From: an archaeon
Lineage (GTDB): Archaea > Nanobdellota > Nanobdellia > Pacearchaeales > GW2011-AR1
DNA: 64,000 nt
NCBI GenBank assembly: GCA_043797265.1
Contig: JAZDPV010000018.1
Coordinates: 11,268-75,267 of the forward strand
Direction of reading: 5' to 3'
Shown: piece after piece, positions 15,877 to 61,571 of the stretch
How the letters are laid out: every line of letters starts with the position of its first letter
Position numbering within the stretch: position 1 is the stretch's first letter
Notes under the pieces: model-generated
The model's database searches: none
What the model was told of the DNA's origin: nothing
Seen by the model: the letters and a program-made list of their open reading frames with translations, nothing else
Position numbers and translations under genes: made by a program

Positions 15877-15984
15877 AATCTTTGATTTCATCAGTTCGCT
15901 TCGCTGGAAGTTGGAAGTTCGCTTCGCTGGAAGTGGGGCTTCGCCCGACCTGGATTATATTTGGCTTGGAGGGATTTAGCTAAG

Positions 15985-16377: not shown

Positions 16378-16882
16378 AGAAAAAACTGGCGAGATTGAAA
16401 AAGAAGTTGTTTCCGAAGAGAAGAAAGAAGAGAAGAAAGATGTGAAGAAAGAAGTCGTGAGGGGGAAAGTTGTGAAGAAAAATATGGCATTCGCGAGAGG
16501 GGCTGGGTTGAATGTTTCGCCGAAGCAATGTATTTGCATTTGCAAAGTTATTCGGGGGAAGAATCCGGATGTTGCTGTTGCGCGGCTGCAGGATGTTATC
16601 GACGGGAAAGGGGTTATCCCGATGGCTGGGCTGGAAGTCGGGCATAGAAAAGGCAAGGGGCTGGCGGGCGGGAGATTTCCGAAAAATGCGTGCAATGCTG
16701 TTATAAATATTGTGAAGCAGGTTGCGGCGAATGCTGTCGTTGCCGGAATTGAGAATCCGGTGATTGCTGTTGCCAAGGCTGATAGGGCATCGGCTCCGTT
16801 CAGGCGTGGAGGGCGAAGAGCGAAGAGATGTAATCTTTATTTAGAAGTGAGAGATAAAACTAAATTGGCGGGGAAGAAATAG
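16371..16882 (+). CDS. rpl22: 50S ribosomal protein L22 with K/E-rich N-terminal extension
   Basis: The L22 core is MAFARGAGLNVSPKQ...AVARLQDV. It is preceded by about 40 aa of EKKEEKKDVKKE. Confidence 0.9.
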
Positions 16883-17580
16883 TGGAAGAAAAAGCGTTTG
16901 TTGGAGTGCGAAGGGATGAGTATAATATTCGGGAATTTGTAAAGCGGATGTTTGGGATGGGGAAAGTTTCGCGAGTGAGGATTGAGTATACTCCGGTTGG
17001 CGAAAAGGTTGTCGTGGCGACGCATAGACCTGGTTGGATTATCGGGAAGGGCGGGGAAAAAATTAATGAGTTGACCGAAATTTTGAAGAAGCGGTTTAAG
17101 ATGGAGAACCCGCATGTTGATATCGAGGAGATTATGAAGCCCGAGTTTGATGCTCAACTGGTTGCCGACGACATTGCTTTGACGCTCGAGAGATTTGGGG
17201 CGCAAAAATATAAGGCGTCGAGTTATCGGGCTTTGGATAGAATTAAGAAAGCGGGGGCTTGGGGGGCTGAGTTGAGATTGTCAGGGAAACTGCCGAGCGA
17301 CAGGGCGCGGAGTTGGAGATTCGCGTTTGGTTATTTGAAGAAAACTGGCGACGCTGCGAGTGTTGTTGATAGGGCTGAATCTGTTGCTGTTACAAAGCAG
17401 GGCGTTGTCGGGATTAAGGTTGCGATTTTGGCTCCGGGGGTTAAGGTTTATGACCAGATTGTAATTGACGAGGATTTTATGAATCAGATTAAGAAAAACG
17501 CGACATTTGAGGAAGTTGAGGAGACGGTTAAGAAAAAGAAAAGAAGTGTGAAGAAAAAAATTAAGGAGGGTAGGAAATGA
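16882..17580 (+). CDS. rps3: 30S ribosomal protein S3
   Basis: KH-domain tract GWIIGKGGEKINELTEILKKRF, with S3 family order. Confidence 0.9.
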   Translation: MEEKAFVGVRRDEYNIREFVKRMFGMGKVSRVRIEYTPVGEKVVVATHRPGWIIGKGGEKINELTEILKKRFKMENPHVDIEEIMKPEFDAQLVADDIALTLERFGAQKYKASSYRALDRIKKAGAWGAELRLSGKLPSDRARSWRFAFGYLKKTGDAASVVDRAESVAVTKQGVVGIKVAILAPGVKVYDQIVIDEDFMNQIKKNATFEEVEETVKKKKRSVKKKIKEGRK

Positions 17581-17771
17581 TGGCGGAGAAGAAAATGACG
17601 GTTAAGGAAATAGATAAGAAGATTATGGACTTGAAGATTGAGTTGCTGCGGAATCCGACGAAAAAGGGAAAGATTAAAAGGGAAATTGCGCGGCTTCTTA
17701 CCATGGGGAACCGAGAGAACAGAGAATTAAAAATGAAGACTTTAACTAAACTGGAGGATGCGAAGAAGTAA
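17577..17771 (+). CDS. rpl29: 50S ribosomal protein L29
   Basis: 64 aa. MTVKEIDKKIMDLKIELL is L29-like. Confidence 0.85.
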   Translation: MMAEKKMTVKEIDKKIMDLKIELLRNPTKKGKIKREIARLLTMGNRENRELKMKTLTKLEDAKK

Positions 17772-18070
17772 TGGATATTTGTCCGAAGTGTGGACTGCCT
17801 TTGGCGGCGTGTGTCTGCGGCGAGATTGCCAAGACGCAACAACAAATTGTTGTGAAGACCGAAAAAAGGCGTTTCGGAAAAGTTAATACGATTATAACCG
17901 GATTTGATAATGGCGTCGACGTTAAGGATCTCGCGAAGCGGCTCAAAATGAAGCGGGCTTGCGGTGGCACGACGAAAAACAATGTTATCGAATTACAGGG
18001 AAATCACAAAGGTCACATTAAACCGATTTTGGTTGAAATAGGATTTAGTGAAAATCAGATTGACGATTAG
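17771..18070 (+). CDS. Translation initiation factor SUI1 (aSUI1/eIF1 homolog)
   Basis: N-terminal CPKCGLP..CVCG zinc ribbon plus the SUI1 fold tract KRRFGKVNTIITGFDNGVDVKDLAKRLKMKRACGGT. Confidence 0.85.
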   Translation: MDICPKCGLPLAACVCGEIAKTQQQIVVKTEKRRFGKVNTIITGFDNGVDVKDLAKRLKMKRACGGTTKNNVIELQGNHKGHIKPILVEIGFSENQIDD

Positions 18071-18099
18071 CGCGTTTGCGTGAGGTGATAGAGAATAGA

Positions 18100-18447
18100 A
18101 TGGCAGAGAAAAAGGTAAGGAAGAAAATAGAAATAAAGGTCGAATGTAAAGATAGACTTTGTCCTCGGCATGGGGATAGGAAGTTGAAATTGAGGGGGCG
18201 GGTTTTTGAGGGGGTTGTGATTAGAAAATTTCCGAGGAGAGTCACGATTGAGTTTGAGAGGATGTTGAAGTTGCCGAAGTACGAGAGATATGAGAAAAGG
18301 AAAACCAAGATTCACGCGAGATTGCCGGATTGCATGAAGGATGAAGTTGCCGTTGGTGATTTGATTTTGATTGCGGAGACGCGACCAATTTCGAAGATGA
18401 TTCATTTTGTTGTTTCGAAAGTTGTTCGGAAGGGGGCGGGGGAATGA
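18100..18447 (+). CDS. rps17: 30S ribosomal protein S17
   Basis: CKDRLCPRHGD...GVVIRKFPRRVTIEFERM, S17 family. Confidence 0.9.
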   Translation: MAEKKVRKKIEIKVECKDRLCPRHGDRKLKLRGRVFEGVVIRKFPRRVTIEFERMLKLPKYERYEKRKTKIHARLPDCMKDEVAVGDLILIAETRPISKMIHFVVSKVVRKGAGE

Positions 18448-18507
18448 GATATGCTTTGATAGAAAAAGGGCTTCGCCAAATTTTATTTAATGTTTTGGAG
18501 GTAGAAA

Positions 18508-18714
18508 ATGAAGGCGATTAGTGCGCATCATGAGTATAAGGTGGGACTTAATTCTGGTAATTGGTATGGGGTTAGAGAGAGCGGGTTGCCGAGTGATAGA
18601 GAAGTTATTGGGGATTTAGAGGATGATAATAGTGTTTTTGCCTGTGGTCTTTTTGGCATTGGTACATCTAAAATAAAAAAACCTAAAGCGAGGAATGAAA
18701 ATGAAGGCGATTAG
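18508..18714 (+). CDS. Small ORF (68 aa) whose RBS and first 6 codons duplicate the L14 start
   Basis: gaaaatgaaggcgattagtg occurs at 18502 and again at 18694. The ORF body has no recognisable family. Confidence 0.3.
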   Translation: MKAISAHHEYKVGLNSGNWYGVRESGLPSDREVIGDLEDDNSVFACGLFGIGTSKIKKPKARNENEGD

Positions 18715-19102
18715 TGGGCGGGTGACGAGGGGGTTGAATATTGGGAGTTTGGTTGATGCGTGTGATAATAGCGGGGCGCGGATTGTAAAAATTGTGGCGG
18801 TGAAACACGGGAAGACGTCGAAGGGACGGCAGGGTTATGCGAAGGTTGCGGATTGGGTGAAGGTTTCGGTGAGAAAGGGAGACCCGAAGATGAAGGGCGA
18901 GGTTTTTGATGCGGTGGTTGTTCGGCAGAGAAAATCGTGGCGAAGAAACACGGGCGAGAGAGTTTGCTTTTCGGATAATGCGGTTGCGTTGTTCAAGGAC
19001 GAGAAGGGAAATCCGAAGGGGACGCAGATTAAGGGTGCGGTCGCGAGGGAAGTTCAGGAAAGATGGAAAGAAGTCGCTAAAATTGCGGGGAGTGTTTATT
19101 GA
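18701..19102 (+). CDS. rpl14: 50S ribosomal protein L14
   Basis: MKAISGRVTRGLNIGSLVDACDNSGARIVKIV, L14 family. Confidence 0.9.
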   Translation: MKAISGRVTRGLNIGSLVDACDNSGARIVKIVAVKHGKTSKGRQGYAKVADWVKVSVRKGDPKMKGEVFDAVVVRQRKSWRRNTGERVCFSDNAVALFKDEKGNPKGTQIKGAVAREVQERWKEVAKIAGSVY

Positions 19103-19228
19103 TGGGAAAATTAAAAATTTTCCCATGGGGATACGAGAAACTTTGTTTCTCGAGGGGATATGGCTTCGCCATGGAGATAGACGCTTCGCGTCGGGTGATT
19201 GCGCTTCGCGCGGGTGAATGGAGGAAAG

Positions 19229-19750
19229 ATGAAGTCGAAATTTAATAAATCGTGGAATGCGAGTGTGAAGCCAAGGAAACAGAGGAAGTTTTTGGTGAAT
19301 GCGCCGAATCACATTAGGCGAAAGTTGATGGGAGCGACGCTGGATAAGAGATTGAGGGCGAAGCATGGGGTGAGGAGTATTGAAGTTCGGAAGGGCGATG
19401 AGGTCAAGGTTATGAGAGGGAAGTTTGCGAAGAAGCAAGGGAAAGTTGGGGGGGTTGATGTTAAGAATTGCCGGATTCAGATTGATGGATTACAAAGAGA
19501 GAAAAAGGGTGGAGAGAAAGTTATGACGTGGTTCCATCCGTCGAGTGTGAAGATTGTTGTTTTGGATGATAGTGATAAAAGACGGTTTAAACGGAAAGGT
19601 TTGGAATCTGGGAAAGTAAAATTAAGAGAGGGGAAAAATGGCTCACGGATGAACACGGATGAGCACGGATTAAAGAATAAGGAAAATAGAAAAGTTGATA
19701 GAATCGTTAAGGGGAAAATAGATAAAATGGAAAAGGAGATTAAGAAATAA
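19229..19750 (+). CDS. rpl24: 50S ribosomal protein L24 (KOW) with C-terminal extension
   Basis: The KOW motif is [20 protein letters not shown]. The C-terminal [19 protein letters not shown] is encoded by the recurring motif. Confidence 0.85.
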
Positions 19751-60997: not shown

Positions 60998-61103
60998 GCG
61001 TGGATAGTATAATGGTTAGTATAACTGGTTTCCAAATACTTAGTTCCAAAAGAATTAGATATGAAAATACCAGTTGATCGGGGTTCGAATCCCCGTCCGC
61101 GCA
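60998..61103 (+). tRNA. tRNA-Trp (CCA) with ~32-nt intron 3' of the anticodon
   Basis: Acceptor GCGTGGA/TCCGCGC + A. Anticodon stem CTGGT/ACCAG with loop TTCCAAA, interrupted by tacttagttccaaaagaattagatatgaaaat. T-arm CGGGG-TTCGAAT-CCCCG. Confidence 0.7.
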
Positions 61104-61251: not shown

Positions 61252-61334
61252 GAGGAGATGCCGGAGTGGTCAAACGGGCCAGACTCAAGATCTGGTGGCT
61301 TATGCCTACGGGGGTTCGAATCCTCCTCTCCTCA
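61252..61334 (+). tRNA. tRNA-Leu (CAA)
   Basis: Acceptor GAGGAGA/TCTCCTC + A. Anticodon stem CCAGA/TCTGG with loop CTCAAGA. Long variable arm. T-arm GGGGG-TTCGAAT-CCTCC. Confidence 0.8.
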
Positions 61335-61351
61335 TTTGTCAAGGATAAATT

Positions 61352-61427
61352 GCTCTCGTAACTCAGCCTGGATTAGAGTGCGTCCCCCCTAAGGACGAAG
61401 TCGTAGGTTCAAATCCTACCGAGAGCG
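61352..61427 (+). tRNA. tRNA-Arg (CCU)
   Basis: Acceptor GCTCTCG/CGAGAGC + G. Anticodon stem CGTCC/GGACG with loop CCCCTAA. T-arm GTAGG-TTCAAAT-CCTAC. Confidence 0.7.
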
Positions 61428-61459
61428 TTAAGTTTATAAAATGGAATTTTATTGAATTG

Positions 61460-61571
61460 TTAGACGGCCATAGTAACTTGGTCACACCCGATCCCATTCC
61501 GAACTCGGAAGTTAAGCTTGTTACGTTCGTGTTTGTACTGTCTTTGATGGGAAGGCACGGAGCTGTCTGCT
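61460..61571 (+). rRNA. rrf: 5S ribosomal RNA (standalone, next to tRNAs)
   Basis: GACGGCCATAG...CCCGATCCCATTCCGAACTCGGAAGTTAAGC...GGGAAGGCACGG are conserved 5S blocks. The terminal helix pairs AGACGGC with GCTGTCT. Confidence 0.8.

Follow-up and report, generated by a model that had tools for sequence, protein, structure and literature searches.

An open reading frame inserted between rps17 and rpl14 of a DPANN archaeon may bridge translational coupling across the junction

Introduction

In the ribosomal protein operon studied here a 68-codon open reading frame (ORF68) lies between rps17 and rpl14, and it opens with the start codon and first codons of the gene that follows it. What kind of sequence is this frame, how did it come to carry the start of rpl14, and what keeps it open? 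We addressed these questions in a 64-kb stretch of archaeal DNA (the window) and in the corresponding junctions of related genomes.

Results

The start region of rpl14 is repeated around ORF68

The locus is part of an archaeal ribosomal protein operon of a DPANN archaeon, read on the plus strand in the order L2, S19, L22, S3, L29, SUI1, S17, L14, L24 and S4e (Table 1), and its closest L14 sequences are found in MAGs labelled Woesearchaeota, Pacearchaeota or Nanoarchaeota. Two in-frame ATG codons at 18695-18703 (ATGAAAATGAAG) could serve as the start of rpl14, GAGG being separated from them by 1 nt and 7 nt, respectively. Since L14 is 133 aa long in 120 of 120 homologues among the matches listed, the ATG at 18701 is favoured over that at 18695.

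Table 1. Features of the rps17-rpl14 region and neighbouring genes. Positions are those of the window.
Feature	Position	Strand	Remarks
S3	16882-17580	+	
L29	17577-17771	+	
SUI1 (aIF1)	17771-18070	+	between L29 and S17
rps17 (ribosomal protein S17)	18100-18447	+	Pfam PF00366, E 3.9e-17; stop TGA 18445-18447 overlaps ATG 18444-18446
orf25	18444-18521	+	25-codon mini-ORF (MRYALIEKGLRQILFNVLEVENEGD), frame 0 translation; stop TAG 18519-18521
Window-specific spacer	18448-18507	+	part of the 64-nt insertion; absent from L081, L083 and L001
Repeat copy 1	18504-18523	+	GAAA, ORF68 ATG, codons 2-5, out-of-frame TAG ending orf25
ORF68	18508-18714 (with stop)	+	between rps17 and rpl14; 68 codons, starts MKAISA; stop TAG 18712-18714
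GAGG	18690-18693	+	Shine-Dalgarno-like motif for rpl14, 7 nt upstream of ATG 18701
Repeat copy 2	18697-18716	+	GAAA, rpl14 ATG, codons 2-5, out-of-frame TAG (18712-18714) ending ORF68
rpl14 (ribosomal protein uL14)	18701-19102	+	133 aa; Pfam PF00238, E 5e-32
ORF47	19102-19245	+	MGKLKIFPWGYEKL...; stop TAA 19243-19245
L24	ATG 19229	+	
S4e	starts 19750	+	

The junction contains two exact plus-strand copies of the 20-mer GAAAATGAAGGCGATTAGTG, 193 nt apart from start to start, a two-match count that was reached in 0 of 100 dinucleotide shuffles. Beyond these, no third copy was found at up to three mismatches. The original prediction had recognised both copies, although it placed them 2-3 nt from their true positions (at 18502 and 18694), and had described the repeat as spanning the ribosome-binding site, the ATG and six codons of L14. 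The ATG is indeed repeated, but exact identity is limited to GAAA, the ATG and the next 4.3 codons (four codons and a single base), and the Shine-Dalgarno cores lie just 5' of the exact repeat and are unlike between the copies (GGAGG at 18497-18501 for the first, GAGG for the second). ORF68 does, as proposed, carry a copy of the L14 start codon and first five codons. Because the 193-nt spacing is of the form 3n+1, ORF68 reads the second copy out of frame and ends at the TAG within it, 14 nt inside rpl14. The NCBI entry for ORF68, on a contig of 91 kb, reads 'MAG: hypothetical protein V1889_03485 [archaeon]'. Searches for exact matches to ORF68 and to the two L14 start variants returned no other contig.

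Composition and gene content around the locus were also recorded. The coding strand is strongly G-rich and C-poor, with a GC skew of 0.2-0.8 in 100-nt windows between 17000 and 20500, and this extreme excess of G over C produces long spurious antisense ORFs. One of these, a 251-aa frame on the minus strand at 18683-19438, antisense to rpl14, was rejected as an artefact of the C-poor coding strand. In 17577-18447 SUI1 lies between L29 and S17, and a gene for the RNase P protein Rpp29 is absent from the place that it takes in many archaeal operons. Elsewhere in the window, 60998-61103 and 61252-61571 hold a cluster of three tRNAs and a 5S rRNA, of which the 106-nt tRNA at 60998-61103 was called by Rfam, missed by ARAGORN and probably contains an intron.

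ORF68 lies in an insertion that is shared with related lineages

The S17-L14 junction was compared in 80 species-representative genomes, 80 metagenome contigs with a close L14 (65-95% identity) and two Logan contigs. In 123 of 160 loci (the window counted) the stop of S17 and the ATG of L14 overlap or are no more than 5 nt apart, almost always as ATGA; the gap measures 6-60 nt in four loci and more than 60 nt in 33. A plain ATGA junction is also present in L082, whose L14 is 95% identical to that of the window. Since the ATGA overlap is the usual arrangement in relatives, the ORF68 segment is an insertion, in agreement with the claim that the intervening DNA has no counterpart at the canonical junction.

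When used alone in a word-indexed search, ORF68 matched only itself. Nevertheless, diverged homologues are found at this position in three related lineages: L083, with a 62-aa frame (MRAIRVGREYRLRLDSDMGYGDRWGGLPSDREIV...) that matches ORF68 at a blastp E of 1e-10; L081, with one of 57 aa (MKAIRADCEYKLSL...); and L001, whose 68-aa frame is identical to that in L084. The 68-aa ORF and its MKAISA start were correctly called but the frame is no orphan, and the segment, while inserted relative to the ancestral ATGA-overlapped junction, is by the original prediction's own criterion a lineage-conserved arrangement rather than a one-off insertion. A profile of the four members, run against 5.8 billion protein clusters, retrieved only those four. 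All begin with an L14-like M-K/R-A-I-S/R, degenerate in L001, and the stop codon of each (TAG or TAA) lies 14-17 nt inside rpl14; in L081, L083 and L001 the ATG of the small ORF overlaps the S17 stop directly (ATGA). The L083 version is recorded on 5 contigs and the L001 version on 3, from several sources.

The start repeat matches at 20 of 20 positions in the window and at 13 of 16 in both L081 and L083. Copy 1 of L083 and L081 keeps GCGATWAG although no upstream ORF needs a stop there, which points to historical duplication rather than convergence. ORF68 is absent from the sister lineages L082 and the L002 group, and a neighbour-joining tree of six ribosomal proteins groups the window with L001/L084, L081, L089 (which has a different insert) and the L002 group (which has none). 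This grouping suggests an old insertion that may later have been lost or replaced, and the direct repeat would make precise loss easy.

A second, window-specific insertion contributes a 25-codon frame

Compared with its relatives, the window has 64 additional nt between two AATGA motifs (18443-18447 and 18507-18511). The spacer contains a mini-hairpin (GGGCTTCGCC, 18468-18477), a TATA-like AT-rich stretch at about 18481-18491 and the GGAGG of ORF68. It is spanned by orf25, whose ATG overlaps the S17 stop (ATGA) and whose own stop falls within the first repeat copy, 14 nt beyond the ATG of ORF68. The two repeat copies thereby form identical junctions, in each of which the upstream ORF terminates 11 nt beyond the ATG that follows, and the genes make up a chain of overlaps from S17 to orf25 (-4), ORF68 (-14) and L14 (-14). 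orf25 is specific to the window and was found in none of the relatives, and the 64-nt spacer, orf25 and the perfect 20/20 repeat identity are confined to one assembly.

The spacer resembles that between L2 and S19 (score 13.5, reached in 2 of 2000 shuffles), with other tiles of the window scoring equally high. The AT-rich stretch TTTTATTTAAT (18481-18491) lies approximately 20-25 nt upstream of the ORF68 ATG and is similar to an archaeal TATA box; it could be an internal promoter, giving a transcript with a short leader or none. A comparable stretch, ATTATATTT, precedes GGAGG in the L2/S19 spacer. A scan for bacterial-type promoters and terminators, which is blind to archaeal promoters, gave nothing relevant. 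GCTTCGC, a heptamer that forms the core of short stem-TTC-stem hairpins, is present at 14 sites against 4.4 expected (0 of 100 shuffles), clusters in the L2/S19 and L14/L24 operon spacers (sites include 15898-15944, 18470-18476 and 19163-19209) and has one copy within the 64-nt spacer upstream of ORF68. These sites may constitute a small family of intergenic hairpin modules.

The frame of ORF68 is kept while its peptide is barely constrained

Between the window and L083, ORF68 has a dN of 0.41 and a dS of 0.56, a ratio of 0.73 that is biased downward by the protein-guided alignment, whereas for L14 the same comparison gives a dN of 0.03, a dS of 0.67 and a ratio of 0.05. Members of the family range from 57 to 68 aa with frequent indels, and yet the frame is open across the whole gap in all four, an outcome seen in only 0.75-2.3% of shuffles of each insert (1.75% for the ORF68 body). 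Near-neutral dN/dS together with a maintained frame indicates that the peptide sequence is barely constrained and that translatability is what is constrained.

These data also bear on a rival explanation, in which ORF68 is a functional, fast-evolving small protein, such as a lineage-specific peptide for ribosome association or host interaction, and the L14-like start would be a by-product of its origin. The maintenance of the frame in four lineages would be expected of such a protein, as would the dN/dS below 1, the motifs EY[KR], YG.R and GLPSDRE shared by the window and L083, and the location of ORF68, behind a GGAGG of its own, in an operon that is highly expressed. Weighed against this, a ratio of about 0.7 is close to neutrality even before its downward bias is considered, L081 and L001 retain few of the motifs, the length varies by indels, and the gene is missing from the L002 group and L082. 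ORF68 matches no Pfam family, and a single-sequence AF2 model is of low confidence (pLDDT 50, pTM 0.24) with no confident fold. We therefore regard a protein function as unlikely, while noting that the open frame, the dN/dS below 1 and the conserved GLPSDRE are also compatible with a weakly constrained functional peptide.

Origin of the inserted segment

A partial tandem duplication had been proposed as one origin of the segment. That proposal is still viable as far as the copied start is concerned, but the similarity of the ORF body to L14 is at the level of shuffled sequence. In local DNA and protein alignments the body matched neither the L14 5' end nor the S17 3' end significantly. A left-anchored alignment of the body with L14 gave z = 2.2 in the window and was not significant in L083, L081 or L001. 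The idea that the body is a diverged rpl14 copy found no clear support, the GLNSG/GLNIG and IGDLEDDNS/IGSLVDACDNS matches being not significant and the anchored test marginal in the window only. A tandem duplication across the junction, in which the 3' end of the insert would equal that of S17, likewise found no support: the 17 of 21 matches seen by eye in L083 were not above a cross-genome null, which is dominated by the common GGAGG, A-rich spacer and ATGA. On these comparisons a tandem-duplication origin of the ORF68 body is unproven.

Three further candidates found no support. A regulatory RNA structure in the insert is not indicated by its fold (z = +0.41) and has no Rfam match there. For programmed translational bypassing of the T4 gene 60 or mitochondrial byp type the matching codons are present, but no stop follows MKAIS, 68 codons are open, the gap is 193 nt against about 30-55 nt expected, and the same fold z-score signals no unusual structure. 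The boundaries are direct repeats rather than the complementary ends that an archaeal bulge-helix-bulge intron would require, and the minimum free energy fold has neither a joining helix nor excess stability.

A different route to a duplicated start is homology-facilitated illegitimate recombination, in which an rpl14-bearing fragment from a related strain would have recombined homologously inside rpl14 and illegitimately on its left side. The product would comprise the recipient's first L14 codons, then donor upstream DNA, then the donor L14 start, which would explain the repeat without calling for similarity in the ORF body. A possible example is seen at this junction in an independent contig, L094 (Ga0222640_1019850, around 866-1010), where a 56-63-nt copy of the L14 5' end (the first 21 codons; 0 of 500 shuffles) precedes a full rpl14, the two being separated by tandem G-rich units (GTTCGGGGTGTCGG...). 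This first copy agrees with the L14 5' end of L097 and L089 at 58 of 63 positions (92%) and with its own downstream L14 at 46 of 63 (73%), a patchwork that could stem either from illegitimate recombination with a related allele or from chimerism of the contig, L094 being a 1.6-kb metagenome contig. Nothing identifies a donor for the family in the window, and the insert has the same G>C skew as its neighbours, which argues that it is long resident or native. We consider this route quite improbable for ORF68.

The ORF body could alternatively be a captured fragment of a giant surface or tail-fibre-like gene, representing one 'GIGT...LxVxG' repeat unit. An exhaustive phmmer search of 1.84 billion representatives returned, besides ORF68 itself, seven repeat-rich proteins matching ORF68 residues 20-56 (E 7e-8 to 1.6e-4), which carry Peptidase_S74, Phage_T4_gp36 or CARDB domains, and residues 32-54 match a P0124 unit at 12 of 23 positions. 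However, the scores are summed over near-identical units, so that the E-values are inflated and single stretches reach about 24 bits; the L083, L081 and L001 homologues score at most 0.5 bits against the same proteins, and the 64-kb window contains no such gene. Capture of this kind is a long shot.

The original prediction had also likened the repeat to a target-site duplication, which would make the 20-mer the footprint of a transposon or MITE-like element inserted in rpl14 codon 6. Exact 20-nt direct repeats do flank the insert, and the S17/L14 and L14/L24 junctions are insertion-prone across the clade. The hallmarks of such an element are lacking, since in 18300-18900 the best inverted repeat is an internal 8-nt AT-rich pair (18481-18488/18671-18678) and not terminal, the 64-kb window holds no second copy of the insert, there is no transposase and no phage match was obtained. 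Moreover, 20 bp is long for a target-site duplication, the family was found at this one site only, in four lineages, and the inserts of other species are mutually unrelated and do not carry L14-start repeats. Transposition is accordingly very unlikely.

An assembly artefact, whether a chimeric path or a collapsed repeat in the MAG, is barely credible: a 20-nt exact repeat equals k-1 for assemblers using k=21, the spacer and orf25 come from one assembly and the window's own proteins are on no other recorded contig, but a small ORF with an L14-like start and a stop inside rpl14 recurs in four independent assemblies spanning Logan, JGI and NCBI, its homologues are recorded on multiple contigs, and a chimeric join would itself need the 20-mer to be present twice.

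Gap-filling ORFs are concentrated at both flanks of rpl14

Across the related genomes, the distinct S17/L14 inserts (n=30) are almost all single gap-filling ORFs with ATGA at both ends, and the frame is open across the whole gap in 25 of the 30, against 1.3 expected. The inserts of relatives are mutually unrelated, a few close pairs excepted. A similar situation exists at the L14/L24 junction, which exceeds 150 bp in 28 of 154 loci and then usually contains a single ORF (33-144 aa) that fills the gap and in most cases has no relation to those of other species. Such inserts are rare at the other junctions (L29/SUI1, 0/93; L24/S4e, 1/139; S3/L29, 2/88; SUI1/S17, 1/128). Pfam matches were obtained for 3 of 50 rpl14-flank ORFs (NUDIX, HEAT_2 and TPR_2), and at each rpl14 flank an unrelated orphan ORF bridges the junction in roughly one of five relatives. 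In the literature accessible to search we found no description of inserts concentrated on the rpl14 flanks as gap-filling ORFs in DPANN operons.

We tentatively propose that both flanks of rpl14 in Pacearchaeota/Woesearchaeota-type DPANN are hotspots where orphan ORFs repeatedly arise or are captured and become fixed as coupled bridging genes, a proposal that we hold to be plausible but short of probable. Under this proposal the ORF68 family would represent one birth route, by way of a duplicated start module of the downstream gene.

The window itself has a second bridging ORF at the other flank. The ATG of ORF47 overlaps the L14 stop (TGATG) and its stop lies 17 nt inside rpl24, the same stop-inside-next-gene geometry as for ORF68. 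Folding of the 126-nt L14/L24 spacer gives 4-5 short hairpins (z = -2.4). In L081 the L14/L24 junction contains an ORF of 93-95 aa, and another ORF, of 81 aa and without a Pfam match, lies between L5 and S14. In two cases, L024 (JAHITY010000136.1) and L028 (JBNMFJ010000004.1), an archaeal S17-L14 operon has been deposited as an Omnitrophota and a Patescibacteria MAG, respectively, labels that are likely due to binning contamination.

Discussion

On balance we favour, with modest confidence, the view that ORF68 is a lineage-specific bridging ORF that arose by insertion or duplication at the junction and preserves translational coupling from S17 to L14. It probably persists through passing ribosomes to L14, and not through its protein. 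We infer both this relay and the duplication mechanism; what the analysis establishes is the repeat, the status of the segment as an insertion, the family of homologues, a near-neutral protein in a maintained frame, and the geometry of the overlaps. In the proposed series of events, DNA would have entered the rps17/rpl14 junction, normally a 4-nt ATGA stop/start overlap, and the event would have copied at least the opening 14-16 nt of rpl14 (ATGAARGCGATWAG). The new ORF would then open with L14's own start and first codons, with the intact L14 start remaining downstream, and the 20-mer would be a reused junction module made up of an A-rich spacer, the ATG and GCGATTAG with its out-of-frame stop. 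A second and younger insertion, the AATGA-flanked 64 nt, would have parted S17 from ORF68 in this genome, giving rise to orf25 and providing copy 1 with the same stop-inside-next-gene geometry as copy 2. Ribosomes leaving S17 would pass through orf25 and then ORF68, reach a TAG located 11 nt beyond the following ATG, terminate there and be able to reinitiate on rpl14. The bridge would in this way keep the S17-L14 coupling that the insertion would have broken.

The co-directional overlaps of 4 nt (S17/orf25), 14 nt (orf25/ORF68) and 14 nt (ORF68/rpl14) match the layout of termination-reinitiation. In archaea this form of coupling needs overlaps or very short distances and collapses at a stop-start separation of around 20 nt, and overlaps of -14 and -17 belong to 'phase 1', the commoner class of long overlaps (PMC10666635). 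Two features temper the case for a relay. The -14 overlap exceeds the optimal -4/-1, which counts against it, and with Shine-Dalgarno motifs of their own preceding ORF68 and rpl14, rpl14 could initiate de novo without a relay.

If the relay is real, selection for coupling alone can keep a frame of 60-70 codons open for a long time while its peptide drifts, and new proteins could draw on such frames within an operon that is among the most conserved known. Annotators are cautioned as well that 'hypothetical proteins' in DPANN ribosomal protein operons may be coupling devices and not functional proteins. If the hotspot proposal holds, the rpl14 flanks would offer a natural comparative system for gene birth under a constraint to keep the frame open.

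ORF68 is best filed among translationally coupled bridging ORFs, and the wider rpl14 hotspot may be of more interest than ORF68 itself. As in known cases of termination-reinitiation coupling (Huber et al. 2019, PMC6728339; Huber et al. 2023, PMC10666635), the genes are co-directional, with the upstream stop within or next to the downstream start; the default S17/L14 junction of the clade is a classical ATGA overlap, and the -14/-17 overlaps fall in phase 1. ORF68 differs in being an inserted, near-neutral ORF and not a subunit of a complex, in having 14-nt overlaps rather than 4 or 1, and in that two relay ORFs would act in series. The partial tandem duplication and divergence by which orphan genes can be born is comparable in that the rpl14 5' end has been copied and relatives are detectable in four lineages only, but here no significant resemblance to L14 could be traced past the opening 5-6 codons.

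The closest known analogues are the MIRU elements (Supply et al. 1997, via PMC12548453). These are also inserted at a start codon inside an operon, have an internal ORF whose ends overlap the flanking stop and start, and leave downstream expression little disturbed (PMC12548453). MIRUs are multi-copy, form tandem units and have -4 junctions (PMC12548453), whereas the ORF68 insert is single-copy in the window, unrelated to the inserts of other species, and begins with the first codons of the downstream gene. A second analogue is provided by short upstream ORFs whose sole role is to deliver ribosomes to a coupled following gene (PMC12548453; bicistronic-design cassettes), for which being translated is what matters and the stop is placed at the downstream start. 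In contrast to these, ORF68 is long, at 68 codons, lies between two essential ribosomal protein genes and was born by insertion into an overlap.
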